Part shown: piece by piece, positions 11,765 through 25,631 of the stretch | Layout: each line of letters begins with the position of its first letter | Position numbering within the stretch: the stretch's first letter is position 1 | Notes under the pieces: generated by a model | The model's input: the letters and a program-made list of their open reading frames with translations, nothing else | Told to the model about the DNA's origin: nothing | Databases searched by the model: none | Position numbers and translations under genes: made by a program | Source of the DNA: a virus | Lineage: Duplodnaviria; Caudoviricetes | IMG/VR virus record: IMGVR_UViG_3300037461_000119 | Location: 1 to 25,631 of that record | Reading direction: 5' to 3' (one strand) | Length of the DNA stretch: 25,631 nt

Positions 11765-13158
11765 AGTTCGATCCTCACGTTGCCGCGGCGCATCCGGTCG
11801 CGCTCGGCCCAGAGTTGTTCGAGGTTGAACGAATAGGACATCGGCACAGCATACGTCGGCGCGGGCTTCGGCGCGACGTGTACACGCTCTCGCATGACCA
11901 TCGCGCCGTAGGTGAAGCCGTCGGCGCCGTGGCTGGCCCAATTGTGGTCGGGCTCGGCGCTGTAGCAGCGTCGCTCCTCGTCGTACTTGAACGACCACTC
12001 ACGCAGCGCAGCGAGGCCCTGAGCGCACGCAGCGGCGTCGAAGCGGCACGAGGGCAGCACCGAGCGTGCGGCGTTGATGCGGTCCTGTAGCGACGCCTGC
12101 GGCACGAGCTTGATGTTCTCGGCCTTGAGCCTGCCCGACTTCTTGGCGTCGATGAACTGCTGCACGACGCTGTGCTTGGTCTGGAACGTTTTGGCGCGTG
12201 CATCGTGCGGCAGCCAGAACGTGTCGATCTTGTAGGGCAGCACCGCGAGCCGCTCGATCCAGTCGCTTGCATCGAGCCCGGTGTCCTCGTAGTAGTCCAC
12301 CAGCGCGAAGCCGTCGGTGTACGCCTGCCAGAACCAGAACGCGGCCGCGTCGCGATAGCCGATGTCGCACGAGACGTAGAGCGGCCCGGCGTGCGGGTCG
12401 TAGCGCACGTCCATGCTGATGCGACCGGCCTTGTCGGCCTGCTCGATGTAGCGGCCGAGGATCGCGCCCACGTTGGCCGCGGAGAAGTCGCAGTAGAACT
12501 CCTGCCTGATGAGTTCCTCGGGCATCCCGAGCCGCCGCTCCTCCTCGATAACCGACAGCGGCACGATGTTGGTGTCGTCCACCGTGAGCAGTGACGTGTA
12601 GCAGCCCTCGGCCTGCTTCATCGCCTCGTGCAGCTTGTAGGCGTGGTTGTAGCCGCGCGGCGTGGTGATGAACGCGGCCCAGCCGTCGTTCTCCGCGAGG
12701 ATCGGGCGCATCAGGTCCCATGCGTGCGGGTGCGTGACCGCGAACTCGCTGAACGTGATGCCGACCGGGTTCGCGCCGATGTTCGAGTCGAAGGTGTCGG
12801 CGCCGACAAGCTGGATCATGGAGCCGTTCGCCAACTCGACCTTCATCTCGGTCTCGTTGGTGCGAGCCCGCATCGCCTGCGGGATCGTCACGTCCATGAG
12901 CTTCTTGCCGTCTTTGGTGATGTTGTCCCAGACGACCTTACGGGCTTGCTTGTGCGTCGGCAGGCAGTGCCAGTAGGTGCCGACGCGACGATGCGCCATG
13001 CGCACCGCGACGTTGAGCATCGTGCGGTCCTTGCCGCTGCGGCGATGCCACACGAGCGACGCACGCCTGCCGCCCTTGTCGAAGTAGCTGACGACCGGCT
13101 TCTGATAGTCCCTGTAGCGCATCCCCCCAACCACTACTTTCCGCACGGGCGCGTTCAT
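11761..13158 (-). CDS. terL: Terminase large subunit (465 aa)
   Basis: YQ adenine-binding motif, Walker A HRRSGKD, Walker B GITFSE, motif III ITTPRG, QEFYCDF, nuclease motifs DIGYRD, PHDA and SHGADG; ATGA overlap with the HNH gene. Confidence 0.93.
   Translation of the reverse strand: MNAPVRKVVVGGMRYRDYQKPVVSYFDKGGRRASLVWHRRSGKDRTMLNVAVRMAHRRVGTYWHCLPTHKQARKVVWDNITKDGKKLMDVTIPQAMRARTNETEMKVELANGSMIQLVGADTFDSNIGANPVGITFSEFAVTHPHAWDLMRPILAENDGWAAFITTPRGYNHAYKLHEAMKQAEGCYTSLLTVDDTNIVPLSVIEEERRLGMPEELIRQEFYCDFSAANVGAILGRYIEQADKAGRISMDVRYDPHAGPLYVSCDIGYRDAAAFWFWQAYTDGFALVDYYEDTGLDASDWIERLAVLPYKIDTFWLPHDARAKTFQTKHSVVQQFIDAKKSGRLKAENIKLVPQASLQDRINAARSVLPSCRFDAAACAQGLAALREWSFKYDEERRCYSAEPDHNWASHGADGFTYGAMVMRERVHVAPKPAPTYAVPMSYSFNLEQLWAERDRMRRGNVRIEL
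11877..11886. repeat. CGTGTACACG palindrome, site 4 (3' end of terL)
   Basis: Exact 10-mer. Confidence 0.8.
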
Positions 13159-13520
13159 GCTCGTTTGCGCCGTGCGTAGTCTGCGCCGCAGGCCCGGCAC
13201 CGCCGCTCGCCGTTAGGGCGCACTTGCGTGTTCGCCTCGGTGAACTCGTGCCCGTTGGTGCAGTGTGTCTTGAGCGCGTTGTAGCGACCGTGGCGACCCT
13301 TGCTCACCATGTCGAGCGAGTTGTCGCGGTGCGTGCCTAGAAACATGTGCGCCACGTTCACGCAGCTTCTGACATCGCACGCATGACACACGCACAGCCC
13401 GCGAGGGATTGGCCCGTGCTCGCGCTCCCATGCAGCCCGGTGTGCAGTGCCGTTGCGCCCGACCCTGCCGTAGCCATTCTTGCCGATGGCCCCTGCCCAG
13501 ATGATGCAGTCGCTAGTCAT
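13155..13520 (-). CDS. HNH endonuclease with C-terminal Zn-binding domain (121 aa)
   Basis: CIIW.G...NGYG, AHRAAWE..HGPIP.G..VCHACDVRSCVNVAHM..GT..DN..D, then KTHCTNGHEFTEANT...CRAC. Confidence 0.88.
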   Translation of the reverse strand: MTSDCIIWAGAIGKNGYGRVGRNGTAHRAAWEREHGPIPRGLCVCHACDVRSCVNVAHMFLGTHRDNSLDMVSKGRHGRYNALKTHCTNGHEFTEANTQVRPNGERRCRACGADYARRKRA

Positions 13521-13803
13521 CGACCTTCTCGAACACGAACTGCACCGGGCCGCCGCCGTCGCCCTTGTGTTCGACCGCCGCGAGCTTCGGCACGACGAAC
13601 TGCAAGAGCCCGAGCGCCGCAGTTGCACGCACGCCGTCGTGCTGGCCGCCGTTCTCGCACAGAGAGTGCAACGTATCAACGGCGAGCTTCGCGTTGATGC
13701 TGTTGCGAATGCGCTCGATGGTCGCTGCTGGCAACTTGCGCCCGCGCGGCGGGCCTTTGCCCGCTTTAACCGGGCCGCGCTTTGTCCTTGCCTTGGTTGG
13801 CAT
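13513..13803 (-). CDS. Probable terminase small subunit (96 aa)
   Basis: Basic N-terminus, helical core and C-terminal PKLAAVEHKGDGGGPV typical of TerS; upstream of terL. Confidence 0.65.
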   Translation of the reverse strand: MPTKARTKRGPVKAGKGPPRGRKLPAATIERIRNSINAKLAVDTLHSLCENGGQHDGVRATAALGLLQFVVPKLAAVEHKGDGGGPVQFVFEKVDD

Positions 13804-13810
13804 TTGGCAA

Positions 13811-14107
13811 TTAGCCCTGCTTCGCCATCGCACGCATGAGATTGCCCCTCACGCTTTCATCGGGCGGGGCGACGCGAGGCGTGATTCGCGGCTCAAGTCC
13901 TCGCCGTGGTGAGGCTGCACGGTTGTAACCCGTGGCGTTGTCATCGGGCTCGTCGTCATCCTCGCCACCTTTTGCGCCACCCTCCGGTTCGCCTTCCTCG
14001 CCTTCTTCCCCACGCTCGTCCTCCTCGTAAGGCTTCTCGCCCACGCAAATCTTGATGCTGCCGCCGCCTGCATCGCGCAGCGCCGCGATGATCGCCTCGA
14101 TGCTCAT
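13811..14107 (-). CDS. Acidic hypothetical protein (98 aa), first gene of the late operon
   Basis: ATG 14107 behind AGGAG; E/D/G-rich middle. Confidence 0.65.
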   Translation of the reverse strand: MSIEAIIAALRDAGGGSIKICVGEKPYEEDERGEEGEEGEPEGGAKGGEDDDEPDDNATGYNRAASPRRGLEPRITPRVAPPDESVRGNLMRAMAKQG

Positions 14108-14124
14108 GTCGTTCGCTCCTGTGC

Positions 14125-14134
14125 CGTGTACACG
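14125..14134. repeat. CGTGTACACG palindrome, site 5 (just upstream of the RBS of the first late gene)
   Basis: Exact 10-mer. Confidence 0.8.
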
Positions 14135-14221
14135 CTCTGCCTGCGGCCCATCGCACGGCATGGCGCCGCGTATATCACAACCGGAGCGCCCCGGGTAGAA
14201 GCGCCGCGGTGGGGGCGCCCT

Positions 14222-14530
14222 CCGCCACAGCCTAGTGGCGGGGCCATGGAGCGGCTAAAAAGTGAGTATATATACCGCATTATTGTTAAATTGCCTGTTT
14301 TTTGTGGAAATCTGTATTCATATGCAAGTCTAGTGGCGGCTGTGGCGGAAAATGCGTTTTAGCCTACAAAACAAGGCACCAAACCCCCGCCACAGTATCC
14401 GTTTCCAGCGGCGGAAACCGCGGCGGCTGTGGCGGGGGCTGCGACTACGCCCCCCAACGGTACCTCGCCACCGTCTCGGCCTTGGCCCGCTGAAGCTTGC
14501 CTCCGCGAAGCATTTCCGGGGCTGTGGCGG
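14222..14530. repeat. Putative replication origin: AT-rich core flanked by CTGTGGCGG/CCGCCACAG repeats
   Basis: AT-rich stretch ~14256-14330; 9-mer in both orientations at about 14222, 14340, 14387, 14427 and 14522, plus two CTAGTGGCGG; at the 3' end of the primase gene. Confidence 0.6.
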
Positions 14531-16760
14531 GGATTCTGAGCAGCCACACACGTCGCCTTCCGTCGACCTCATCCCGCCGTCGACCAAGCATCTTCTCGGC
14601 CACGGCACGCACGTCGCTCGCCGTCCTCCGGTCGGCCGCACGTTCCCCGACCATCTCGCACAGGTCGGCCACGGTCACGACGTAGACCTCGGCATCGGCG
14701 GGCGCGGCAAGGCAGCGCCCAAGGAAGTCTTTCAGCCCTTCGACGGCCGGGGCGTCGTCCTCGAACTGCTCGGCCTGTGAAGCCCGCAGCGCGTCCTCGG
14801 CGTGCGTCAGGTGCCACTGCTCCCCGGCCTGCCAGAGCGCGTAGACCTCACCCCAGAGCGCCTCAAGGTCGATCCCGTGGTCGGTCTCCAACCCCTCGAC
14901 CGAGAGCGGCCAGAAGCGCCGTGAGCCCGTGTGATCGCGCAGGAAGCTCGTGCTGTTCACGGTGCCGCAGAATGCGGTCATGCGCGGCCAGTCCTCCCAC
15001 GTCGCGCCGTAGGGCAGCCTGAGCTTGTCGTCGGGGCGTGAGAGGAAGTTCTTCAACGCCCCGGCCTCGCTCGCCCTGAACGTGGTCTCAAGCTCTCCAA
15101 GCTCGACGATGATGCCGCCCGAGAGCGCCTCGAACACGCTGTCGCGTGCGGTCGGCCCGCTCAGGTGCAGCGACGCGCCTTCCTTGTAGAACCCGGCCGG
15201 TACGATGGTGCGGAACCACGTCGTCTTGCGCGTGCCCTGCTTCCCGGCGAAGGTCAGCACGCCCGACAGTTGCCGCGACGGTTTGCGCCAGCCGCACGCG
15301 GCCTCGACGCACTGGATCAGCCAGCGGCGTACATACGCCCGCGCACGCTCTGCGTCGGCCTCGGGGTCCGAGAGCTTGATCGTGCGCACCAGCGCCTCGA
15401 TATGCGCCTCACCGCGGCGAGCGGGCAGCGAGCGCAGCCAGTCCTCGAACGGGTGATAGGCGTTGGTGAGCGCGAGCCGGTTAAGTTGCACCATGCGCTT
15501 CGAGTCCTCGCGGATGCCGAGCATGGTCAGGATGTCCCCAAGCGCGGCGTCGGTCGCTCGCCGCCGGTCGCCTTCTGTCGCGCACCGTCGGTAGTAGTCG
15601 TGCGTGGCGAGCGCCCCCGGTGCGATGCTGTACTCCTTGCGCATCAGGTCGTAGCGTGGGGTGAGCCCAAGCCGCGTGACGACGTGTTCCACGTTGGCGA
15701 ACGTGGCGGGCTGTATCTTCGCCAGCCCTCGCTGCGTGCAATCGAGGTCTGGCAGGCTCTCTTTGGCGATGCGTGGGAAAGCCCCACGGAACTGCGCGTA
15801 GTTGCTGCCGAGCGCCTGCTTCAACTCCCCCGGCGTCGCGACCGGAACTTCCTGCTCGCGCAAAAGCCCGGCCAGCTTGTCCATCGTCTGCTCGGCGTCC
15901 ACCGTGCCCGGGCCACCCTGCTCGCCCACCCAACGCATGAACTCCTGTGTGTGTCGGTCCTTGCAGGTTGTGTGCTGGCACTTGAAGCCGCGCGTGCCGT
16001 TCTCGTCGAGCGGTCGATAGCCCGCCTCGGGCCGCGGGTCCGCGACGTGTTCGCTGCGCCACGGGCACAGAATGTCGATCCACTCGCCCTTGTCATGCCG
16101 CACGTCGCCGCGCTTGATGAGCCACGCCAGCACCGGATCGTGTTCGGCTCTCTCTGCGCTCACGAAGCTCTCAGTGCGCTCCACTTCGAGCGTGAGCCCG
16201 TAGGCGTCGGCAAGTTCCTGCACGCTCCAGAAGCGGTCAGGGTGCCACTCGTGCAGCACCGCCGCGAACGGTTCGGCGCCCTTGTAGTTGAGCGAGCCCG
16301 GCACGCGCATGATGCGGACACGGTCGACGCACGACTTGTCGGTGAGCCCAGCCGCGGCCAGCGCACGCATGAGAGCCTCGAACAAGTCGCCGTCGGTGCA
16401 TGGCTCGATGAAGTAGCCCCACTGAAAATTGCCGGGGGAGGTTTCGAGCTTGTAGCTGGGCGGGACGTGTACACGCTCCGCGTCGATCTTGGTACCGATG
16501 TCGTCCAGCACCACGACATAGGCCGCGCGGAAGTCGACCTTGCGCTTTTTAAGCGGCGTGGCCTTGGCAACCGTCGAGACACAGAAGTAGAGCGCGTCCT
16601 TCGACCGAGTTACCTTCGAGTCTCCGGGTAGCGCCCACTTCGCAGTGCGTGCGCCCTTGGGCATCAATCCGAAAACAGGCGTCTCGCCCTCGGGCACGTC
16701 GACAAAGATGGCGTCGAGGAACTCTTGGGCGCTCGGTGCGCCGTCGTTGCCCTCGCTCAC
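14445..16760 (-). CDS. Primase-helicase: RepB-type primase, Zn finger and VirE/VapE-like ATPase (771 aa)
   Basis: VVLDDIG, PSYKLETSPGNFQWGY and RIMRVPGSLN (RepB/AEP primase); CPWRSEH...FKCQHTTC; GKQGTRKTT, IVELGEL, LRLPYG and FCGTVN...FLRDHTGSRRFWP (VirE). Confidence 0.9.
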   Translation of the reverse strand: MSEGNDGAPSAQEFLDAIFVDVPEGETPVFGLMPKGARTAKWALPGDSKVTRSKDALYFCVSTVAKATPLKKRKVDFRAAYVVVLDDIGTKIDAERVHVPPSYKLETSPGNFQWGYFIEPCTDGDLFEALMRALAAAGLTDKSCVDRVRIMRVPGSLNYKGAEPFAAVLHEWHPDRFWSVQELADAYGLTLEVERTESFVSAERAEHDPVLAWLIKRGDVRHDKGEWIDILCPWRSEHVADPRPEAGYRPLDENGTRGFKCQHTTCKDRHTQEFMRWVGEQGGPGTVDAEQTMDKLAGLLREQEVPVATPGELKQALGSNYAQFRGAFPRIAKESLPDLDCTQRGLAKIQPATFANVEHVVTRLGLTPRYDLMRKEYSIAPGALATHDYYRRCATEGDRRRATDAALGDILTMLGIREDSKRMVQLNRLALTNAYHPFEDWLRSLPARRGEAHIEALVRTIKLSDPEADAERARAYVRRWLIQCVEAACGWRKPSRQLSGVLTFAGKQGTRKTTWFRTIVPAGFYKEGASLHLSGPTARDSVFEALSGGIIVELGELETTFRASEAGALKNFLSRPDDKLRLPYGATWEDWPRMTAFCGTVNSTSFLRDHTGSRRFWPLSVEGLETDHGIDLEALWGEVYALWQAGEQWHLTHAEDALRASQAEQFEDDAPAVEGLKDFLGRCLAAPADAEVYVVTVADLCEMVGERAADRRTASDVRAVAEKMLGRRRDEVDGRRRVWLLRIPATAPEMLRGGKLQRAKAETVARYRWGA
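16466..16475. repeat. CGTGTACACG palindrome, site 6 (in primase)
   Basis: Exact 10-mer. Confidence 0.8.
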
Positions 16761-16948
16761 TTGTCGCTACTCGGCTTGAACGGGGCCAGAGGGACCCAAC
16801 CGGCGGGCACCGACTTGCCGGTGTTGGTCATGTACCCGTGTATGGCGGGCTGGTAGACGTAGACACGCCCAAGGTTCGTGAGCGCATGGATAACGACGTT
16901 ATCCTCGCTCTCTTGGCAAGTGCTGATTTGGATGATCTTCTCGGACAC
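16757..16948 (-). CDS. Hypothetical protein (63 aa, MSEKIIQIS...), coupled to primase
   Basis: GTG 16948 with AAGGAG RBS; GTGA overlap with the primase start. Confidence 0.7.
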   Translation of the reverse strand: MSEKIIQISTCQESEDNVVIHALTNLGRVYVYQPAIHGYMTNTGKSVPAGWVPLAPFKPSSDK

Positions 16949-16992
16949 AGGACTCTCCTTTTTGGGTTTCCAGACTCCAGTGGAAGGGAGCG

Positions 16993-17021
16993 ACTCTACT
17001 CCCGCAGTTGACCACGGGCAA
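16993..17021 (-). promoter_or_regulatory. Sigma70-type promoter for the 63-aa/primase operon
   Basis: TTGCCC-17 bp-TAGAGT on minus; overlaps the divergent sRNA promoter. Confidence 0.6.
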
Positions 17022-17036
17022 GTCGACGGGTACAGT
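17008..17036 (+). promoter_or_regulatory. Sigma70-type promoter of the putative sRNA
   Basis: TTGACC-17 bp-TACAGT. Confidence 0.7.
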
Positions 17037-17042
17037 TCGCGG

Positions 17043-17121
17043 ACTCCTAGTTGGTTTACTCCAGTGGATCGACACGGACAGGGCGAAGCCCCGGGTAGCA
17101 ATACCCGGGGCTTTTCTCTTT
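17043..17121 (+). ncRNA. Putative trans-acting antisense small RNA (~80 nt)
   Basis: Bounded by a plus-strand promoter and a plus-strand intrinsic terminator inside a minus-strand region, with no plausible ORF of its own. 5' half ACUCCUAGUUGGUUUACUCCAGUGGAUCGA is complementary to several phage RBS leaders. Confidence 0.65.
17086..17121 (+). terminator. Rho-independent terminator, plus-oriented
   Basis: AAGCCCCGGGTA-GCAA-TACCCGGGGCTT followed by TTCTCTTT; GNRA loop and T-tract occur only on the plus strand. Confidence 0.8.
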
Positions 17122-17282
17122 CAGCGCCCCGCCATGCGCTCGGCGTCGTCCTCGGCGCAGTTGGCGAACCACCAGAGCGCCATGCTGCCGAACGCCCAGC
17201 CATCTTCACCGATGATGAAGCAGGCCAGCGTGGCGAGCCCGGCGCAGAACGCGACGGCGTCCCAGAAGTTGCTCTCGCTCAT
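17121..17282 (-). CDS. Small hydrophobic / membrane protein (53 aa)
   Basis: TGATG overlap with the upstream gene, GGAGG RBS; FWDAVAFCAGLATLACFIIG hydrophobic stretch. Confidence 0.6.
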   Translation of the reverse strand: MSESNFWDAVAFCAGLATLACFIIGEDGWAFGSMALWWFANCAEDDAERMAGR

Positions 17283-17839
17283 CACAGGTCCTCCCCGCAG
17301 CACGGGCAGCGTGTCGCAAGCTGGAACCACTGGTTCGACATCCGCCACACCGCGCCGCACGCGGAGCATTCGAGCTTCATATGGCGGTTCTTCTGCTTGC
17401 CCGCGCCGTCGAGCGTGAGCGAGCCGTAGTCGAAGGCGGGCATCGCGGCCAGCGTCTCGTTGATCCACTTGGCAAGCTCGGCGCCCGCGTGCGTCGCGGT
17501 CATCTTGCCTTCGAGCCCGACCGACTTGGCGACGCGCCGGAAAAATCCCTTGTGGCCGCTCTTGCAGTCGTCGGCGGCGTGGATGGCCTCATGCACCAGC
17601 ACGTCGACCAGCGTGAACGGCGTGCGCATCACGGGGTTGAGGAAAATCTCGTTCACGCCCTGCGAGGAGCGCGAGCGCGGCCAGCACTCCCCGATGCGCT
17701 TGCGGGCCGAGCCGCCGCCCGGGAAGCCGACCGAGACCTTGCAGTCGGCCGGGACGGTGGCGCCGTGGGCGGCGAGCAGCGGGGCAACGTGCTTGTGCAG
17801 GACCGTGGTTAGCCACTGCTCGCGGGTCATCTTGGTCAT
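17282..17839 (-). CDS. SprT-like zinc metallopeptidase with C-terminal Zn ribbon (185 aa)
   Basis: VLVHEAIHA (HExxH), GHKGFF, then CSACG...CPCC; ATG 17839 lies 6 nt after GGAG. Confidence 0.8.
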   Translation of the reverse strand: MTKMTREQWLTTVLHKHVAPLLAAHGATVPADCKVSVGFPGGGSARKRIGECWPRSRSSQGVNEIFLNPVMRTPFTLVDVLVHEAIHAADDCKSGHKGFFRRVAKSVGLEGKMTATHAGAELAKWINETLAAMPAFDYGSLTLDGAGKQKNRHMKLECSACGAVWRMSNQWFQLATRCPCCGEDL

Positions 17840-17845
17840 GGTCAT

Positions 17846-17903
17846 CTCCAGTGAGGTTGATCGAACGACAGGCAGTGTACACGCCCTGTTAGGAGATTGC
17901 AAC
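17846..17903 (-). promoter_or_regulatory. Early promoter/leader repeat, copy 3
   Basis: TTGCAA(17902-17897)-17 bp-TACACT(17879-17874), then GTTCGATCAAcctCACTGGAG. Confidence 0.85.
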
Positions 17904-18376
17904 TACCCAACCATGTTCATGCTGCGGACCTCGTAGCCCGCCTTGCGGATGCGGCTTGCGGCCGACGTGCGGTTGTGGGCGCCCACGAGTACCGTGTGCA
18001 TCGCGTTGCCCTGCCCCTCGACCTCGGCCTCGTAAGCGTGCGCCCCCGTGAACGGCAGTTCATTCACTACCGCCACCACTTTGCAGGTACGGGCCAGTCC
18101 GTTGCCCTGCTGGTTCCAGTAGTTGTAGCGCCCCGGGTTGCCACGGTCCTCACTGCCGTCGCGCCAGTGCTTCGGAATCTGGCACTCGTAGCCCGGGTGT
18201 GCGTTGCCGAGGAACTCGCAGTAGTTGACGTGGCAGTCGCCGCCCGGCCCGCTGGCGTCGTGGCTCTGGCTCACCTTGACTTCCCTCACACGGAACAGGC
18301 CGCCGTGGGCGATTATCAGGTCATCGACCTTGAGCGTGTTGGTGGGGACGCTGGCGGTGCGGTAGCGGGTCGTCAT
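17903..18376 (-). CDS. Hypothetical early protein (157 aa)
   Basis: ATG 18376 behind CACTGGAG and repeat copy 2; WNQQGNGLA motif. Confidence 0.75.
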   Translation of the reverse strand: MTTRYRTASVPTNTLKVDDLIIAHGGLFRVREVKVSQSHDASGPGGDCHVNYCEFLGNAHPGYECQIPKHWRDGSEDRGNPGRYNYWNQQGNGLARTCKVVAVVNELPFTGAHAYEAEVEGQGNAMHTVLVGAHNRTSAASRIRKAGYEVRSMNMVG

Positions 18377-18384
18377 CTCGTGTA

Positions 18385-18441
18385 CTCCAGTGAATTGATC
18401 GAACGAGAGGCAGTGTACACGGGCTGTTAGGGGATTGCAAC
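18385..18441 (-). promoter_or_regulatory. Early promoter/leader repeat, copy 2
   Basis: TTGCAA(18440-18435)-17 bp-TACACT(18417-18412), then GTTCGATCAATTCACTGGAG. Confidence 0.85.
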
Positions 18442-18469
18442 CCTTCATCGGCTTAACAGCCCGGTCGCC

Positions 18470-19222
18470 TTACCAGCCGCCCTTAAGGGCGCACTCGGGG
18501 CCGATGCCCCGGGCCACGCTCACCGGGTCGGTCAGGAGCCGCCCGCAGCACCCGCAGCGCCCCGTGCGCTGCCCGTGGTCCTCCAGCGCCCGGGCCGGGT
18601 CAACCTCGATGGCCGCGACCGCGGTAAAGAGGTCGTCGCGGCGCAGGGAGCCCGACTTGACCGTGCGGAACACCCCCTCGGTGCGGTCGATGACCCCGAC
18701 GAGGTCCTGCCCGTCCTTGACCCAGACGAGGTCGGCCGGGTCGTTGCGCAGCGTGAAGCGCAGGGCGCCCACGGTGAGGCGTGCGAAGCGGTCGGGGGCG
18801 ATCAGGGCCGCCAGCCCGGGGACGGGCAAAGTCGGCGTGGCGGGCCTCGCAGGGGCCTTCTCGATGGTCGTCTCGACCACCGGCAGCGGCCCCGGGACCT
18901 CCGGGGGCGCCGTGACGCCCGCCCACTGGCAGAGCTTGGCCGCGTAGTCGGCCTGCTTCTGGCTGGCGTAGGAGCCGTAGCGGTCGAGCTTGGCGGCGAT
19001 GTCGAAACAGGTCTCGGAGTCGCGGGCGGCGAGGGTGTTCACCCGGGTCGCGCAGCGGGCAGCGTACACGCGCCCAGCCTGCATTAGCTCGTCACGGGTC
19101 GGGCCGACGGGGGCGCCCACGCCTTCCCCCTGCACCGGGTTCGGCAGGTTGTACCGCTGCGCGACTTCGCTCATGCGGGCGCGGTTCTCGCGGCGGGCGG
19201 CACGGTTGGCTTCGTAGGTCAT
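18470..19222 (-). CDS. DUF6011-like Zn-finger early protein (250 aa)
   Basis: C-terminal G.RTGRCGCCGRLLTDPVSVARGIGPEC; S.KQ motif; ATG 19222 lies 6 nt after GGAG. Confidence 0.8.
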   Translation of the reverse strand: MTYEANRAARRENRARMSEVAQRYNLPNPVQGEGVGAPVGPTRDELMQAGRVYAARCATRVNTLAARDSETCFDIAAKLDRYGSYASQKQADYAAKLCQWAGVTAPPEVPGPLPVVETTIEKAPARPATPTLPVPGLAALIAPDRFARLTVGALRFTLRNDPADLVWVKDGQDLVGVIDRTEGVFRTVKSGSLRRDDLFTAVAAIEVDPARALEDHGQRTGRCGCCGRLLTDPVSVARGIGPECALKGGW

Positions 19223-19228
19223 GGTCAT

Positions 19229-19285
19229 CTCCAGTGAATTGATCGAACGAGGAGCAGTGTACACGCCCTGTTAGGGGATTGCAAC
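19229..19285 (-). promoter_or_regulatory. Early promoter/leader repeat, copy 1
   Basis: TTGCAA(19284-19279)-17 bp-TACACT(19261-19256), then GTTCGATCAATTCACTGGAG. Confidence 0.85.
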
Positions 19286-19288
19286 TCC

Positions 19289-19474
19289 TCACCAGTCCCG
19301 GGTCGCCCGCCACGCATCGAACTCGGCCTCGGCCAGCAAAACGTCGGCCCACCACTTCGCCCGCGCCTTGCCCCGGCGCTTCTTGGCCGCCTTATGGTGC
19401 GCCACCAGCCGCCGCAGGCCCGCGACCTCGCGCGGCTCGGGCGGCGGGGGCGCGTAGCCCGCGAACAGTTTCAT
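19289..19474 (-). CDS. Small basic hypothetical protein (61 aa, MKLFAGY...ATRDW)
   Basis: ATGA overlap with the upstream gene; ends just before promoter copy 1. Confidence 0.6.
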   Translation of the reverse strand: MKLFAGYAPPPPEPREVAGLRRLVAHHKAAKKRRGKARAKWWADVLLAEAEFDAWRATRDW

Positions 19475-19911
19475 GCCGCCGCCCGCTTGGCCGCCTTGCG
19501 TGCCCGCTGATCGTCGCGGCGGCAGACGCGGCACGAGCGCCCCTTCTTGCCGTGGTAGGTGTTGGCCTCGTTGTACTCGTGCCCGCGCGGGCAGTGCGTC
19601 TTGGCACGCTGGAAGTCGCCCGCGTAACTGTGGCGGCTGCGCACCTGCACCGGGTCGGTGCTGGCCCACGTCTCGGGCAGCTTCGGCTTCGGCCCGGGCT
19701 TCGAGCGATTGTTGAACTTGAAAAAGTTGTTGCCCGAGAAGTCGCCGTGGCACGTCGGGCACCACGGCGAGAAGCCGGTGAGCGTGTAGCCGCTGCGCGG
19801 CCATATCGCTTCATCGAACTTCACGAGGCACTTCGAGCAGTGCGTCGGCGGCGGCTTCACCTGCTGCGACGGCTTGTAGGGCTTCTCTTTACGGTTGTTG
19901 TGTCCAGACAT
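19471..19911 (-). CDS. Basic Cys-rich putative DNA-binding protein (146 aa)
   Basis: ATG 19911 behind ACTGGAG; CSKC...CPTC and KTHCPRGHEYNEANT...CRVC. Confidence 0.7.
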   Translation of the reverse strand: MSGHNNRKEKPYKPSQQVKPPPTHCSKCLVKFDEAIWPRSGYTLTGFSPWCPTCHGDFSGNNFFKFNNRSKPGPKPKLPETWASTDPVQVRSRHSYAGDFQRAKTHCPRGHEYNEANTYHGKKGRSCRVCRRDDQRARKAAKRAAA

Positions 19912-19924
19912 TTTGGTTCTCCAG

Positions 19925-21355
19925 TTACAGACTCGCGCCGCGCTCGGAGAGTCCCGCGAGCAGCGCATCGGTGATGGCCTTCTTGTGATCGAGGGCGTAG
20001 GCAATCGTCATGTCGACGCTGTCGGGCACGAGGACGCGATGCACGAACACCCGCTCCTTTTGCCCCTGACGGTACAGCCGGGCGATGACCTGATCGTAAA
20101 GCTCGCGGCTCCACGTCAGCGAGGCGAAGATCATGTTGCTGCCGCCGCGCTGGAGGTTGAGCCCGTGGCCTGCGCTCGCCGCATGGACGAGCAGCACGCG
20201 AAGCTCGCGGGCGTTCCAGCGGTCGACCGCACGCTCGGCAGCGCCACGCGAGACGCCCGCGCCGAGGTACTCGACCTGACCCGGGTACGCCTTCTCGAAG
20301 CGGGCGAGAAGCTGGTGCAGTTCGGCCTGATACTCGTACACCACGACCGCGGGCTGCCCCTGCAACTCCTCGACGAGTTCCTCGACCGCATCGAGCTTGG
20401 CGCTGTGCAGCGGCGCGAAGCTCGTGCCGTCGGGCGAGTACAGGAAGCCCGCGGTGATCTGCCTGAGCTTGTTCACCACCACGCCACCGTTCGCAGCGTT
20501 GATGGTCACGTCCTCGATCTGGGCGCGGAAGCTGTCCTCCATCTCGCGGTACTTGCGGGCCGCCTCGATGGGCAGCGCCACGCGCACGTCGTTCACCACG
20601 AGCCCGGGCAACTCGACGTAGTCGCGCTCCTCCATGCGGAAGGCAATCTTGGCGATGGCGTCGTAGATGGCCTGCTCGGCGTTCGGCTTCGGCGCCCACT
20701 TCCAGCCGTTCGGATCGAGCGGCACGAAGAACGTGTTGCGGAAGGCGGTGAACGAGCGACCGAGGATGCCCGGGCGCACCAGCGATGCGGGCGCATAGAT
20801 GTCCATGAGGTTGTTCGCCGTCGGCGTGCCGGTGAGCCCGACCACGACCTTGAACAGCGGGCGCACCTTGGCAAGGGCCTTCGCACGCTTGGTCGTGCCG
20901 TCCTTGCACTTCGAGATTTCATCGAGGATGAGACCGTCGAAGCCGAGCGCGGCGAGGTCGAAGTTATCGACCAGCCACTTCACGTTCTCGTAGTTGATGA
21001 CCACGACCTGAGCGTCGGACTTGAGCGCCTTCTCGCGCTGCGCGGCGCTGCCGATGGCGAGCGCGACCTTGACGTGCGCCGTATGCTCCCACGCTGCGAA
21101 CTCCTGCGCCCAGACCATCTGCGCGACGCGCAGCGGGGCGATGACCAGCACGCGCCTAACGGTAGCGTCTCCAAGCAGTTCGGTCGCCGCCGTCGCGCTG
21201 GTGATCGTCTTGCCCGCGCCCATCGGCATGATGGCGAGCGTCTCGTTGTAGCCGTACAGCCGGTCGATGGCGCGATTCTGGTAGGCGTGCAGGATGTCCG
21301 GTGACAGCCGCGACGAGGTCGCGGAAGCCTTGGACGGTGTCGATGACGTAGACAT
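19925..21355 (-). CDS. SNF2-family (SF2) helicase (~476 aa; start uncertain)
   Basis: LHAYQ, MGAGKT, LVIAP, ILDEIS, GLTGTP, SAGHGLNLQ and QVIARLYRQGQ; nearest ATG with an RBS is 21355. Confidence 0.88.
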   Translation of the reverse strand: MSTSSTPSKASATSSRLSPDILHAYQNRAIDRLYGYNETLAIMPMGAGKTITSATAATELLGDATVRRVLVIAPLRVAQMVWAQEFAAWEHTAHVKVALAIGSAAQREKALKSDAQVVVINYENVKWLVDNFDLAALGFDGLILDEISKCKDGTTKRAKALAKVRPLFKVVVGLTGTPTANNLMDIYAPASLVRPGILGRSFTAFRNTFFVPLDPNGWKWAPKPNAEQAIYDAIAKIAFRMEERDYVELPGLVVNDVRVALPIEAARKYREMEDSFRAQIEDVTINAANGGVVVNKLRQITAGFLYSPDGTSFAPLHSAKLDAVEELVEELQGQPAVVVYEYQAELHQLLARFEKAYPGQVEYLGAGVSRGAAERAVDRWNARELRVLLVHAASAGHGLNLQRGGSNMIFASLTWSRELYDQVIARLYRQGQKERVFVHRVLVPDSVDMTIAYALDHKKAITDALLAGLSERGASL

Positions 21356-21587
21356 TGGTTCCAGTTCTCCTGATCGTGTCGTGTACCGTTTCCTGTTGCG
21401 GCGTGGCCTTGCCACCGGGCCGCTTGAACTCGACGACCAGCACGACCCCGCCGGGGAGAAAGAACAGGCGGTCGGGGACTCCCCGGTTCGCCGGGCTGGA
21501 CCACTTGTAGGTCGGCCAGCCGTTCTCTTTGGCGATGTCGCGGCACTTGCCCTCGACTTCGGACTCAAGCATAGCCGGTTTCGTCAT
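21156..21587 (-). CDS. VRR-NUC domain nuclease (putative Holliday-junction resolvase)
   Basis: LESEVE, GVPDRL, VEFKRPGG...QQ: PD-(D/E)xK motif typical of phage VRR-NUC. Confidence 0.88.
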   Translation of the reverse strand: MTKPAMLESEVEGKCRDIAKENGWPTYKWSSPANRGVPDRLFFLPGGVVLVVEFKRPGGKATPQQETVHDTIRRTGTNVYVIDTVQGFRDLVAAVTGHPARLPESRHRPAVRLQRDARHHADGRGQDDHQRDGGDRTAWRRYR

Positions 21588-21590
21588 AGG

Positions 21591-21619
21591 TTGCAACTCT
21601 CTACGCAGGGTGTTAGGGT
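21591..21619 (+). promoter_or_regulatory. Sigma70-type promoter for the rightward replication operon
   Basis: TTGCAA-17 bp-TAGGGT; same -35 as the early promoters. Confidence 0.55.
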
Positions 21620-21650
21620 GGCGGGGTCAATACACACAGGAGACCGGATC

Positions 21651-22805
21651 GTGACCAAACATTCCCATATCGGCGGCTCGGGGGCCAAGCGCATCATCGC
21701 CTGCCCGGGCAGCCTGCGGCTGTACCGTGAACTCGGGGACGAGATTGCCAAGCGCGACGAGGCCAGCGAGTACGCCCGCGAGGGCTCCATGCTGCACTAC
21801 GTCATGGAGCAGGGCTATAACGACGCCTACGCCCTCATCGGCAGCGAGGACCTCGGCGGCTTCGGCGTAGCCTACACCGAGGAACACTACCGGACCAAGG
21901 TTGCCCCGGCGTGGCAGGCGTTCAACGAATACGTCTCGATGCTCGGTGAGCCGCTCGCCTTCGAGCAGGAGGTCCGCGTCCACGGCACGAGCATCCACTC
22001 CGACGCCTTCGGCACCGCCGACCTGATCGGCCGCCACTCGAACGTGCTGACCGTCCTCGACTGGAAGTTCGGGGATGGCGTGATGGTCGACGTGAAGGAC
22101 AACGAGCAGGGCTTGTTCTACGCGGCCTGCGCCCTCGATACACCCGAAGTGCAGGACTTCACGCGCGGTGTGAAGTTCGTCGACATCGTTATAGTCCAGC
22201 CGATGCGCGACAGCGACGAAATCTGGGACTCGCACCGGCTCACCGTCGATGAGGTCCACGAGTTCGCAGACCGGATGCGCCACGCCATCAAGCAGTCGAC
22301 CGTGATCCCGACCCCCTACGCCCTCGGGGATCATTGCCGCTGGTGCAAGGCCAAGCTCGACTGCCCGGCGCAGCGCCGCGGCATCGAGGAGGTCTCGCGC
22401 CGCACCGGCAACGAGGACTTGGGCAAGCTCCTCGTGGCCTGCGAACGCGCCGAGGACTTCATCAAGGAAGTGCGCGAGGAAGCGTTCAGGCGCCTTACCG
22501 CGGGAGAGCGTGTACACGGTTGGAAGCTGGTGCCGAAACGTGCGCAGCGAAAATGGCTTGACGCGGAGGTTGCAATGGCTACACTGCGTCGTGTCTACAA
22601 GCTGAAACCTTCCGAACTTCTCGTCAGCGAATTGGTTAGTCCCGCTCAAGCCGAGAAGCTCGTCAAGGCCAAGCAGAAGGACCCGAAGGACATCGCCGCG
22701 CTCGTGACGGCCGTGTCCAGCGGCAACACGCTGGCCCCAGACAGCGACCCGCGACCCGCAGTGCCCAGCCTTGCGGGCCTCGGCAAGCTGATCGAAGGCC
22801 GGTAA
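21651..22805 (+). CDS. DUF2800 / Cas4-like PD-(D/E)xK exonuclease (384 aa)
   Basis: GTG 21651 after AGGAG; HS.IGGS...R...CPGS, EGSMLH, FGTAD, LDWKFG, N.Q..FYA, HCRWCKAKLDC and GWKLV. Confidence 0.88.
   Translation: MTKHSHIGGSGAKRIIACPGSLRLYRELGDEIAKRDEASEYAREGSMLHYVMEQGYNDAYALIGSEDLGGFGVAYTEEHYRTKVAPAWQAFNEYVSMLGEPLAFEQEVRVHGTSIHSDAFGTADLIGRHSNVLTVLDWKFGDGVMVDVKDNEQGLFYAACALDTPEVQDFTRGVKFVDIVIVQPMRDSDEIWDSHRLTVDEVHEFADRMRHAIKQSTVIPTPYALGDHCRWCKAKLDCPAQRRGIEEVSRRTGNEDLGKLLVACERAEDFIKEVREEAFRRLTAGERVHGWKLVPKRAQRKWLDAEVAMATLRRVYKLKPSELLVSELVSPAQAEKLVKAKQKDPKDIAALVTAVSSGNTLAPDSDPRPAVPSLAGLGKLIEGR
22509..22518. repeat. CGTGTACACG palindrome, site 7 (in the DUF2800 gene)
   Basis: Exact 10-mer. 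Confidence 0.8.
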
Positions 22806-22836
22806 CTCGAAACGCAACTCGATAGGAAAGACGACA

Positions 22837-23520
22837 ATGACCAAGGCTCTCACGCCCTTCAAGGGCATCAATCTCCCCGCCTCGACTGACCTCCTCGGTG
22901 GCCTGCGCACCGTGGTCAACGAGAAGCCCATGCAGAACACGATGCCGCTGCTGCGGCTCGTGGACGGCGAGTGGCTGTTCGGCGCGGAGAACATCGAGGT
23001 CGAGCAGGACAGTGTGTGGGCGGTCCACCCGGGCAGCTTCATGCACGGTTACTGCGCGTGGGATGACGGTTCGCTGGTCGGTGAAGTGATGGTCCCGGTG
23101 TCGCAGCCGCGCCCCTCGCACAACGATCTGCCGCCGGTCCCGGTGCAGTGGCAGGAGCAGATGAGCATTGTGCTGGCCTGCACCAATGGCGAGGACGCTG
23201 GCACGACGGTTCTGTACAAGAACTCGTCGCTCGGCGGCCGCAACGCCATCACGGAGCTTGCCCAGAAGATCATCGCGCAGGCCGAGAAGGACCCCGCGAA
23301 GCTCATGCCGCTCGTCTCGCTCGGCGTCGGCAGCTACAAGCACAAGAAGTACGGCAAGGTCTATACGCCGTCCTTCGACGTGCAGAAGTTCGAGGCGCTC
23401 TCGGCCTCGGAAGTGGCTGACGAGGAGGAACCCGCACAGAAGCCCACCCGCTCGCGCAAGGTTGCCGAGCCGGTGCAGGACGAGGCCCCTGTGCGCACCC
23501 GGCGCCGTCGCACGGCGTAA
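22837..23520 (+). CDS. Putative single-stranded DNA-binding protein (227 aa)
   Basis: Between exonuclease and polymerase; SYKHKKYGKVYTP.F motif and charged flexible tail. Confidence 0.65.
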   Translation: MTKALTPFKGINLPASTDLLGGLRTVVNEKPMQNTMPLLRLVDGEWLFGAENIEVEQDSVWAVHPGSFMHGYCAWDDGSLVGEVMVPVSQPRPSHNDLPPVPVQWQEQMSIVLACTNGEDAGTTVLYKNSSLGGRNAITELAQKIIAQAEKDPAKLMPLVSLGVGSYKHKKYGKVYTPSFDVQKFEALSASEVADEEEPAQKPTRSRKVAEPVQDEAPVRTRRRRTA

Positions 23521-23568
23521 CCCGACCGGAGGGTGAGGCCCCGTTGCAAGGATGCCTCATGCGTGTTT

Positions 23569-23594
23569 GCCGAGCGCACCCGCTTCGGCTTTTT
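23569..23594 (+). terminator. Rho-independent terminator after the SSB-like gene
   Basis: GCCGAGCG-CACC-CGCTTCGGC (one bulge) followed by TTTTT. Confidence 0.6.
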
Positions 23595-23612
23595 CACTCA
23601 CTGGAGAACACC

Positions 23613-24047
23613 ATGACCTTAGCTGTCCCCGAGAAGGCGCCGCGCAGGCACTACGTCTATATCTGGCACGTCGGTCGCAGTCGCTACGTCGGCAGCGGCA
23701 CACGTTTCAGGGCGTGGACGCATCTCAGGCTCAAGCGCGGCGCAGGCCCGTCGCAACATATCCGCAACGCGCATCTCAAAGGCCAGCCGCTCAAGGTCGA
23801 GATTGTGGCCGACAATCTCTCGGGCGAGGATGCTGCCCGCCTTGAGCGCAGCACCATCGCACGCCTGTACGGCGACGCCAGCGTGAAACTGCTCAACGTG
23901 TACAGCGTGCCGAAGGTCAAGCAGTCCACACGGATGATCCGCTGCCAGTGCCCCACCTGCGGCTACACGCTGCGCACGACGAGGCAGTGGCTCACCAAGT
24001 CGGTGCCGGTCTGCGGCACCTGCAACATCTCATTCGAGGTTCGCTGA
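23613..24047 (+). CDS. GIY-YIG-like nuclease domain fused to a Zn ribbon (144 aa)
   Basis: ATG 23613 behind CACTGGAG; YVY...YVGSG...R...H...E...I...LLN (GIY-YIG/LEM-3-like), then CPTCG...CGTC. Confidence 0.7.
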   Translation: MTLAVPEKAPRRHYVYIWHVGRSRYVGSGTRFRAWTHLRLKRGAGPSQHIRNAHLKGQPLKVEIVADNLSGEDAARLERSTIARLYGDASVKLLNVYSVPKVKQSTRMIRCQCPTCGYTLRTTRQWLTKSVPVCGTCNISFEVR

Positions 24048-24048
24048 C

Positions 24049-25631
24049 GTGCTGCACCTTGATTTCGAGACCCGCTCGCCGGTCGATCTGCGCCGCCTCG
24101 GCCACGACTGCTACTTTGCAGACGAGCGAACGCGCGTGCTGTGCATGGCTTACGCGATGGAGGAAGGCCCGGTCGCGCTGTGGCTGCCCGGGCAGCCGTT
24201 CCCCGAACTCGTCCTCAAGCATATCCGCAAGGGTTGGCCGCTCGCGGCGCACAATGCCGCCTTCGAGCGTGCGGTGTTCGAGTACGGGCTGCTGCCCGAT
24301 GGCGTGCCGCTGCCGAAGCTGGAGCAGTGGGTCTGCACCGCGACGCTGTGCCGCTCGCGCGGGCTGCCCGGCGAGCTTGAGATGGCCGCCTATGCGCTCG
24401 GCATGGGTGAGCAGAAGGACCACCGCGGCAAGGAACTCATCAAGGCGTGCTGCATCGAGCCCGGGTGCAGCGACGAGCGCCTGCCCGAGCTTTACGACTA
24501 CTGCAAGCAGGACGTGCGGGCCGAGCGCGACCTGTACCGGCTGCTGCCGCCGCCCACCGACGAGGAGCAGGCGCTCTACCGGGCCGCCGAGCGCATCAAC
24601 GACCGCGGCATCGCCGTCGACCGCAACTTCTGCATCGCCGCAGGGCACTATCGCGACGAGGAGATGGCCGAGATTCGGGAACAACTCGACATCACGACCG
24701 ACGGGGCGGTGAAGTCACCGCAGGCGAAGCAGGCCGCGCAGAAGTGGATCATCGCCCGCTACCCCAATGCCGAGGAGTTGCGCGACCCGAAGCGCAAGAG
24801 CGGCTACTCGCTCGACAAGCATCATCTCGGGCTCTTTGCCGCACGCGACGACCTCGACGATGACACTCGCTACGTCGTCGAGTTGCTACAGGACGGCGCG
24901 AACACGTCGGTCTCGAAGTACGACGCCATGCTGGCCCGCAGCGGCGCCACCGGGCGTGTACACGGCGCCTACATGACCAACGCCGCGCACACCGGCCGCT
25001 TCTCCTCGAAGGGTGCGCAACTGCACAACTTCAAGCGCGACGTGCCGAAGGATTGGGTCGAGCGGATGGTCGCGGTCTACCGCCATACCCTGCCCGCGGG
25101 CACGGTGATGTCGACGCTGGCCTCGTTGCTGCGCCCGACGCTGATCCCGGCCAAGGGTCGCGTCCTCGCGGGCGGCGACTGGAGCGGCATCGAGGCGCGG
25201 CTCACGGCATGGTTCGGCGGCGCCGAGGAGACGCTCGCCATCTTCCGCGACCCGGAGCGCGACCTGTACGTCGAGACCGCCGAGGGCATGGGCTTCAAGG
25301 ATCGACAGGTCGGCAAGGTGGCGACGCTCGCCTGCGGCTTCGGCGGCATGGGCAATGCGTTCGTCGCGATGGCCCGCAACTACGGGCTGATCGTCTCCAA
25401 GGCTCAGGGCGACATATACGGCCGCGCATGGCGCGATGCGAACCCGTGGGCGCCGGAACTGTGGGCCAGCATCGAGCAGGCCGCCATTGACGCCATGCGC
25501 CGTCCGGGCAGCGTGTTCACCTGCACCGCGCTCGGCAACGTCGCCTTCGCGCAGGCCGGTCGCTGGCTGTGCTGCGAACTGCCGAGCGGCCGCGTGCTGT
25601 ACTACCTCGACCCCAAGCTCGAAGTGTCGAA
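24049..25631 (+). CDS. Phage family A DNA polymerase (3'-5' exonuclease plus polymerase), truncated by window end
   Basis: Hand translation from GTG 24049: LDFETRS (ExoI), HNAAFER (ExoII), YCKQDV (ExoIII), INDRGI, TGRFSS...QLHN, DWSGIEAR (motif A), RQVGKVATLACGFGG (motif B). Absent from the ORF track because it has no stop in the window. Confidence 0.93.
   Translation, partial: MLHLDFETRSPVDLRRLGHDCYFADERTRVLCMAYAMEEGPVALWLPGQPFPELVLKHIRKGWPLAAHNAAFERAVFEYGLLPDGVPLPKLEQWVCTATLCRSRGLPGELEMAAYALGMGEQKDHRGKELIKACCIEPGCSDERLPELYDYCKQDVRAERDLYRLLPPPTDEEQALYRAAERINDRGIAVDRNFCIAAGHYRDEEMAEIREQLDITTDGAVKSPQAKQAAQKWIIARYPNAEELRDPKRKSGYSLDKHHLGLFAARDDLDDDTRYVVELLQDGANTSVSKYDAMLARSGATGRVHGAYMTNAAHTGRFSSKGAQLHNFKRDVPKDWVERMVAVYRHTLPAGTVMSTLASLLRPTLIPAKGRVLAGGDWSGIEARLTAWFGGAEETLAIFRDPERDLYVETAEGMGFKDRQVGKVATLACGFGGMGNAFVAMARNYGLIVSKAQGDIYGRAWRDANPWAPELWASIEQAAIDAMRRPGSVFTCTALGNVAFAQAGRWLCCELPSGRVLYYLDPKLEVS
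24955..24964. repeat. CGTGTACACG palindrome, site 8 (in DNA polymerase)
   Basis: Exact 10-mer. Confidence 0.8.

Follow-up and report, generated by a model that had tools for sequence, protein, structure and literature searches.

Antisense control of a replication initiator is classic in plasmids and in satellite phage P4. ColE2 and Pseudomonas REx-C have an antisense RNA and a coupled leader peptide upstream of the rep gene (PMC5304414; this source and those cited below by accession are used in excerpt). In both, as with CopA of R1 (which also has a leader peptide), a short RNA with its own promoter and terminator lies opposite the 5' region of rep; the ColE2 initiator is a primase, and the short open reading frame (ORF) coupled to rep is found in some of these replicons and is absent from others (PMC5304414). 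Here, we describe a similar arrangement in an uncultured tailed phage, namely a predicted non-coding RNA of about 77 nt, encoded upstream of a VapE-type primase-helicase gene in a 25.6-kb virus record with a G+C content of 66% (IMG/VR record IMGVR_UViG_3300037461_000119, positions 1 to 25,631; this whole stretch of DNA is referred to as the window). A promoter and an intrinsic terminator of the RNA itself, on the strand opposite the 5' region of rep, are a trait of this type of replication control which is present here and in relatives. In the window, the RNA overlaps the 5' region of the rep mRNA only if early transcription continues through 17085-17114; failing this, an 11-nt match in trans is what is left. 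The unit differs from ColE2, REx-C, and CopA, as described in the excerpted source, in belonging to a tailed phage with its own DNA polymerase, in having no Rfam sequence match, and in an RNA that also matches leaders of distant early genes (PMC5304414).

Among the phage antisense RNAs, P22 sar (68/69 nt) and lambda OOP (77 nt) resemble the predicted RNA in size, in having their own promoter, and in their antisense orientation to a transcript of the phage; translation initiation is blocked by sar, while OOP promotes decay by RNase III (PMC12197685). Their targets described in the excerpt are single lysis-lysogeny regulators (ant and cII), unlike the primase or the early-gene class considered here. 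The P4 CI RNA silences the P4 replication genes by premature termination (PMC4825925), and the P1/P7 c4 RNA, which like sar and OOP is of comparable size and has one regulatory target, pairs around a ribosome-binding site (RBS) (PMC12197685). In both cases, as predicted here, short seeds pair with repeated sites, but CI is processed from the transcript that it controls (PMC4825925), whereas the present unit is on the opposite strand and has its own promoter. Neither C4 nor the other phage antisense RNA families of Rfam gave a match at the gathering score, and Rfam as a whole returned no match in the window or in eight relative loci (top sub-threshold score 20.7 bits, with 80 required).

A further likeness concerns the RBS motif ACTGGAG described below. 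The start-associated sequences (SAS) and ESAS of cluster K mycobacteriophages and cluster EF Microbacterium phages are non-structural RBS motifs which are conserved beyond 16S pairing (PMC3203893, PMC7302621). Our motif shares the defining trait, being a conserved and asymmetric RBS motif upstream of non-structural starts only; the likeness is functional (it works alike) while the sequence is different. With 7-8 nt it is shorter than SAS (13 nt in the cluster K consensus, with inverted repeats of 17 bp in ESAS), it belongs to another host group, it goes with sigma-70-type promoters, and its genome carries a candidate gene for a complementary RNA. Whether SAS is bound by RNA or by protein was left open in the excerpted report, which mentions one copy in opposite orientation in four genomes (PMC3203893). 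A literature search returned no antisense-RNA family at a tailed-phage primase and no phage RNA directed against a shared early-gene RBS, which is weak evidence of absence as subscription papers were poorly covered.

The predicted RNA unit

Our preferred reading, held at about even confidence, is that a 77-nt antisense RNA from 17008-17121 dampens primase synthesis, and that its looped seed would also block three genes which are preceded by copies of an early cassette. The RNA likely limits primase production because the unit points away from the primase gene and because this arrangement recurs in relatives. The initial annotation, which proposed a small RNA (sRNA) gene at this position, had missed the link to the primase; it is comparative evidence that ties the predicted RNA to the primase gene. 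The features involved are listed below (SD, Shine-Dalgarno sequence; aa, amino acids).

17008..17036, plus strand: predicted sigma-70 promoter of the RNA, TTGACC-17 nt-TACAGT, 9 of 12 consensus matches
17043..17120, plus strand: predicted non-coding RNA of ~77 nt, oriented against all flanking genes; start placed from the -10 spacing
17050..17073, plus strand: hairpin 1, by folding, 10 pairs including 4 G-U, loop UCCA (17060-17063)
17059-17066, plus strand: seed CUCCAGUG in hairpin 1
17085..17121, plus strand: intrinsic terminator, 13-pair stem (17085-17114) and U-rich tail
16993..17021, minus strand: predicted divergent promoter, TTGCCC-17 nt-TAGAGT, found by eye (8 of 12 matches, sub-threshold in the promoter scan); faces the 63-aa/primase unit and overlaps the RNA promoter
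16974..16984, minus strand: 11 nt fully complementary to the RNA (UCCACUGGAGU), located 26-36 nt ahead of the 63-aa start
16757..16948, minus strand: orphan ORF of 63 aa preceded by a strong SD; shares GTGA with the start of the primase; may be a leader ORF
14445..16760, minus strand: primase-helicase, 771 aa, with a RepB-primase-like N-terminus and a VapE domain; own SD weak

The proposed sRNA gene looks real, as it has a promoter and a terminator and as such units are found again at the primase genes of relatives; its RNA is a prediction. Three promoter-like sites, including the RNA promoter, were detected in 13000-25631 (1.1 expected). Hairpin 1 folds on the plus strand only (-8.2 kcal/mol compared to -1.6 kcal/mol on the minus strand; 18 of 1000 shuffles are as stable). 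The fold of the whole RNA has a z-score of -6.7, which is mostly owed to the terminator. On the minus strand, the tail of the terminator hairpin is U-poor, and a 53-aa gene ends just short of this hairpin.

No other match close to a start is as long as the 11-nt complement in the 63-aa leader. One of 2000 shuffles equals it, and the leader predicted from the divergent minus-strand promoter opens with it. The GTGA overlap and the weak SD of the primase suggest that the 63-aa ORF is translationally coupled to the primase. The only match of this ORF is a 98% identical copy, and it has no Pfam or PHROG match. Its frame stays open for 87 codons further upstream (16757-17209, minus strand), across the RNA gene and both seed copies, which is probably due to chance at this G+C content.

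The locus might also be read without any regulatory RNA, either as a decayed leader beside a terminator or with two TCCA-N-TGGA palindromes (16976-16984 and 17060-17068) serving as DNA operators for a protein at divergent promoters. The minus strand past the hairpin indeed reads like a leader that has CACTGGAG but no start codon, yet the plus-strand terminator at 17085-17121 has no gene to end. Both palindromes, which lie downstream of the two predicted starts, are perfect inverted repeats of 4 bp, but the palindrome is not retained in the early leaders. The lack of an Rfam match would fit as well; promoter-terminator units specific to primase genes, with their -10 under selection (see below), would not. 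We consider this explanation quite improbable. A CsrA/RsmZ-like sponge on the minus strand was also considered, as six GGA motifs were seen by eye; it was rejected in view of the lack of a fold (z-score +0.49) and of a terminator.

According to Pfam and PHROGs, the window codes for head proteins, portal, terminase, the VapE-type primase-helicase, an SNF2 helicase, a VRR-NUC protein, a DUF2800 nuclease, and a family A polymerase. The closest named capsids are those of Stenotrophomonas phage BUCT555 (74%) and Myxococcus phage Mx8 (61%). DNA contigs from five runs (wetland or sediment) contain the window sequence and span the region of the RNA gene; among the variants listed for these five runs, none is located inside the RNA gene. 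In one run (X5), part of the DUF2800 gene (21816-21974) is present as a divergent allele.

Antisense units at primase genes of related phages

Genes of relatives were called with our own script, and all distinct genes of at least 250 aa were scanned under strict criteria, from -450 to +120 relative to the start, for an antisense unit made up of a promoter and a terminator. Such a unit was found at 8 of 13 homologues of the window primase and at 2 of 802 other genes, and both of the latter are AAA_25 primase-helicases. When primases of all types were pooled, a unit was detected at 10 of 29 (one of the ten being L001, the contig of the phage itself) compared to 0 of 786 other long genes. With criteria that were relaxed after the misses had been seen, these numbers became 13 of 29 and 7 of 786. 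The unit covers the primase start in 7 of the 10 strict cases; in the window, in L173, and in the sister phage introduced below, it is divergent and does not overlap the start. Two further candidates precede an AAA_25 primase in G003 and G008 (L186 and L196), where an antisense TTGCAA promoter-like site and a terminator frame ~85 nt, as seen by eye; the scan had skipped these owing to their weak -10.

The SprT-relative phages (primase 33-36% and TerL 46-49% identical to those of the window) share a common gene order, with the polymerase gene followed by a GC hairpin and, 41-44 nt further on, by the primase ATG. On the opposite strand, the same hairpin is a terminator and an extended -10 is located within the first ten primase codons. 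The RNAs predicted from this arrangement have 74-91 nt and extend over the primase RBS, and in most cases also over the start codon. Eight units are of this kind, each consisting of a conserved antisense extended -10 and a terminator at the primase start.

L278:8915-9030, minus strand: antisense unit at primase start
L279:14914-15031, minus strand: antisense unit at primase start
L285:11190-11308, minus strand: antisense unit at primase start
L291:14742-14854, minus strand: antisense unit at primase start
L303:9878-10007, minus strand: antisense unit at primase start
L307:15741-15870, minus strand: antisense unit at primase start
L268:14622-14741, minus strand: antisense unit at primase start
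L297:12368-12492, minus strand: antisense unit at primase start

These eight units are a cleaner case of the RNA family than the window. In 8 of 8 VapE-type genes, the -11 A of the antisense promoter corresponds to a T in the third codon position (codons for Ala, Ser, Val, Gly, and Pro), while third-position T has a frequency of 4.9-5.7% in VapE-type primase genes. We regard this as the best evidence for selection on the RNA; the eight cases are not independent because the phages are related.

The predicted RNAs were also compared to the other leaders of their own phage, and 5 of 9 units match these beyond shuffles. The window RNA matches a fraction of 0.23 of its own leaders and of 0.34 of those from the sister phage, compared to 0.00-0.17 in the other 7 loci. 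In another clade, leaders carry CCACCAC and RNAs carry GUGGUGG. As to equivalents of the complement in the 63-aa leader, L173 has one of 8 nt (45 of 2000 shuffles) and the sister phage has none.

An exact 18-mer search of IMG/VR returned only the contig of this phage, and a scan with the helicase gave no direct homologues. Scans with the leader pattern gave the sister contig only, besides 9 unrelated matches which were discarded as chance. Closer relatives are known as proteins (TerL 71-82%), one of them from a 34.7-kb contig, and the metagenome scan returned none of their early regions.

Shared ribosome-binding sites and predicted targets

The motif CACTGGAG occurs seven times in the window (0.96 expected), a number reached by 0 of 100 shuffles. 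The initial annotation had reported it as the RBS of four genes, and its positions hold throughout (17846-17853, 18385-18392, and 19229-19236 on the minus strand, 23599-23606 on the plus strand). We could also reproduce the 10-nt match in the leader of the 157-aa gene (18383-18392), UCGAUC at 4-5 nt upstream in the three repeat leaders, and the sites ACTGGAG-AACCAA (19913-19925) and ACTGG-AACCAA (21355-21365). Four of the seven copies are thus at an RBS, the others being the complement of the RNA itself, 16975-16982, and one in a coding region. The structural genes had been said to use other RBSs, and ACTGGAG is indeed found in 5 of 14 non-structural but 0 of 17 structural-side RBS windows (Fisher p=0.012); for ACTGGA, it is 6 of 14 compared to 0 of 17 (p=0.004). 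One structural-side gene (1717-1971) carries CTGGAG. Three of the four 8-mer RBS sites are copies of one repeated 63-nt promoter/leader cassette, composed of a TTGCAA-17-TACACT promoter-like site, GTTCGATC, and the RBS. With the cassette counted once, ACTGGAG occurs in 3 of 12 compared to 0 of 17 (p=0.06) and ACTGGA in 4 of 12 compared to 0 of 17 (p=0.02). The sequence CCTAACA is common to the three early-promoter spacers (17880-17896, 18418-18434, and 19262-19278) and also occurs in the divergent gap between the VRR-NUC and DUF2800 genes (21608-21614); it is a possible operator.

Target prediction was carried out with shuffled RNA as control. The best 8-mer of the RNA matches 4 of 31 RBS windows, and 13 of 5000 shuffles are as good (p=0.0026); with the cassette collapsed, 2 RBS windows are matched (p=0.007). 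Among shuffles that keep CTCC, 9 of 784 are as good, or 30 of 784 with the cassette collapsed. Net binding was computed with the structure opened and the leaders cut at predicted starts, using 150 shuffles per leader (numbers of shuffles as good are given in the list).

17837..17902, minus strand: early cassette 1, CACTGGAG RBS of the SprT-like gene (17282-17839); -11.3 kcal/mol, 17/150
18374..18440, minus strand: early cassette 2, leader of the 157-aa gene (17903-18376); -14.0 kcal/mol, 4/150
19220..19284, minus strand: early cassette 3, leader of the DUF6011 gene (18470-19222); -13.8 kcal/mol, 9/150
19913..19925, minus strand: ACTGGAG-AACCAA in the leader of the 146-aa gene, weak predicted target; -2.1 kcal/mol, 148/150
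21355..21365, minus strand: ACTGG-AACCAA at the SNF2 helicase start, weak predicted target; -1.2 kcal/mol, 130/150
23599..23606, plus strand: CACTGGAG RBS of the 144-aa gene, 8-nt match only; -3.5 kcal/mol, 131/150

The initial annotation had envisaged the RNA mainly as a trans-acting switch by which, for example at the early-to-late transition or in a lysogen or carrier state, a class of early genes and replication genes on both strands is shut off. Part of this stands, since the seed match exceeds chance and the motif is restricted to the non-structural class. The ACU extension, which presumably is unable to pair with the 16S tail, is retained in non-homologous leaders at a fixed distance of 6-8 nt from the ATG, while the spacing to the -10 varies. 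However, only the three cassette leaders beat most shuffles. At the leaders of the 146-aa, helicase, and 144-aa genes, 130-148 of 150 shuffles bind as well or better, and we consider these three genes unlikely targets. The first A of the 146-aa site is the final base of the helicase TAA; the helicase site falls within the VRR-NUC reading frame, and the helicase carries ACTGGA only. No replication gene has the full motif, which is absent from the leaders of the primase, VRR-NUC, DUF2800 nuclease, SSB-like, and PolA genes. Neither a repressor nor an integrase was seen in the window with Pfam and PHROGs, which does not favor a carrier state. The 144-aa gene had been termed GIY-YIG-like, a label given by eye; it has no Pfam match, and PHROGs matched its C-terminal end only, with the same family as for the SprT-like gene.

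The motif is not equally common in related phages. Thirty other relatives (10 near-complete IMG/VR genomes, BUCT555, Mx8, and 18 of 48 capsid loci) use ACTGGAG as RBS for 0-2 called genes each. Of 68 SprT-relative loci, 67 have 0-3 such genes; the remaining one is the contig of a sister phage (82% TerL identity; L005/L010/L102). The sister phage has the same cassettes and 8-9 ACTGGAG starts, all non-structural, while its primase belongs to a different, unrelated family. At the same place, it has a predicted unit of 86 nt (L010:5519-5604, plus strand) with UCCAGU in a loop upstream of an orphan terminator, which is the only strong terminator detected there in the scan. This 6-mer matches 10 of 29 RBS windows of the sister phage (p=0.018). 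When 34 terminators from 63 loci were ranked, the window came first by 7-mer matches and the sister phage by 6-mer matches. The sister RNA pairs best with the leaders of two adjacent early genes downstream of its SprT-like gene (L010 17515 and 17802; -18.1 and -13.1 kcal/mol), with two 9-bp blocks around a 2-nt bulge in the latter. The sister record (G016, the record of L010) is classed as provirus by IMG/VR.

RBS sets rich in ACTGGAG are thus confined to the two phages with UCCAGU in their units, and the CCACCAC/GUGGUGG pair of the other clade is a parallel to this. Both would fit a trans-acting switch, but seed and leaders automatically change together when the primase leader to which the RNA is antisense belongs to one family with the other leaders. 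Taken with the three non-cassette targets at or below shuffle level and the main replication genes without the motif, this leaves a switch over all these genes unlikely.

The opposite view is that the RNA acts only in cis on the primase unit, with ACUGGAG being the RBS of a duplicated cassette (a start-associated sequence) and the trans matches having no effect. The origin of three of the four 8-mer sites from one cassette, the seven relatives in which the unit simply covers the primase start, and the weak binding of the sister RNA to its own ACUGGAG leaders speak for it. So do L283:3155-3246 and L293:13034-13125, which show an equally strong seed-before-terminator signal with no antisense promoter found. 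There, a two-way terminator lies beside a copy of the GGAGTCAG RBS shared within the phage, with a 6-codon mini-ORF inside a hairpin, so that the "seed" is the antisense of the RBS of the mini-ORF. Neither locus was counted as a unit, and because of them we consider that the seed-before-terminator signal alone can mislead. A seed-like CACTCC before a terminator in L004 was dismissed, as by our own reading it is within coding sequence on the other strand. On the other side, the seed is intact in the window though no start codon follows its sense copy, the seed hairpin folds on the RNA strand alone, binding to the cassette leaders is predicted at -11 to -14 kcal/mol and covers the SD, and the non-homologous unit of the sister phage has the same 6-mer. 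We assign a low probability to an action in cis only.

Some additional observations were made in the window. A 45-nt repeat (82% identical) is present at 13228-13272 in the HNH gene near the terminase and at 19559-19603 in the 146-aa gene, and both genes match the same HNH PHROGs. A small terminator-like hairpin precedes the 144-aa gene (23572-23585, plus strand), and a promoter-like site is located within the DUF2800 gene, ahead of the SSB-like gene (22558-22585, plus strand). A 1017-aa gene amid the head genes (5984-9037, minus strand) has no Pfam or PHROG match.

Possible mechanism and biological meaning

According to our preferred reading, in which the RNA restrains the primase and its seed also reaches the cassette genes, host sigma-70 polymerase would make the RNA from the start of infection. 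Early transcription would pass the weak minus-strand hairpin and enter the 63-aa/primase unit, and the RNA would pair over its full length with the resulting transcript; with the unit's own leader, it would pair via 11 nt. The coupled primase would then decrease, either because the leader ORF is translated less or because the duplex is cleaved. As to its origin, the seed may be antisense to a sequence of the leader family: the primase ATG of relatives follows 41-44 nt past the same type of hairpin, and here the start codon would have been lost. Being antisense to such a sequence, the RNA would be complementary to the other members of the leader family, the early cassettes, and upon accumulation might cover the SD of the SprT-like, 157-aa, and DUF6011 genes.

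Several observations weigh against this reading. In the predicted fold, just 4 seed bases (the UCCA loop) are unpaired. The RNA is located 282 nt from the primase start and 95 nt from the 63-aa start, and action in cis requires read-through, to which only the U-poor tail points. Net binding to the 63-aa leader is -7.6 kcal/mol, with 57 of 150 shuffles as good, and the portal leader (a late gene) ranked third when the windows reached to -45. Among the relatives, 16 of 29 primases have no unit even by relaxed criteria. The RNAs can be aligned with those of relatives at the terminator only, so that membership in an RNA family rests on position, size, and orientation. Trans matching is missing in 4 of 9 units, and the G003/G008 candidates have no leader match beyond shuffles (49-365 of 500). 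The sister RNA binds its own ACUGGAG leaders weakly (-1.4 to -7.4 kcal/mol), and the promoter of the sister unit is a poorer match to the consensus.

We remain doubtful that pairing in trans is a selected function. It is likewise only tentatively that we propose a primase antisense RNA which has turned into a one-RNA timer of the early program, where genes would join by gaining the cassette and where the RNA, freed from the primase start, would silence all of them via its anti-RBS seed. The RNA family shows two states, one with the RNA over the primase start and one with the RNA displaced yet matching early leaders. Side by side, these suggest how an antisense RNA acting in cis could plausibly become an sRNA with several targets. 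If the timer exists, the so far unexplained start-associated sequences of phages would have a molecular partner, and a purpose that can be tested. With a candidate RNA at hand, the question of whether RNA or protein binds SAS, which the excerpted report leaves open (PMC3203893), becomes testable.

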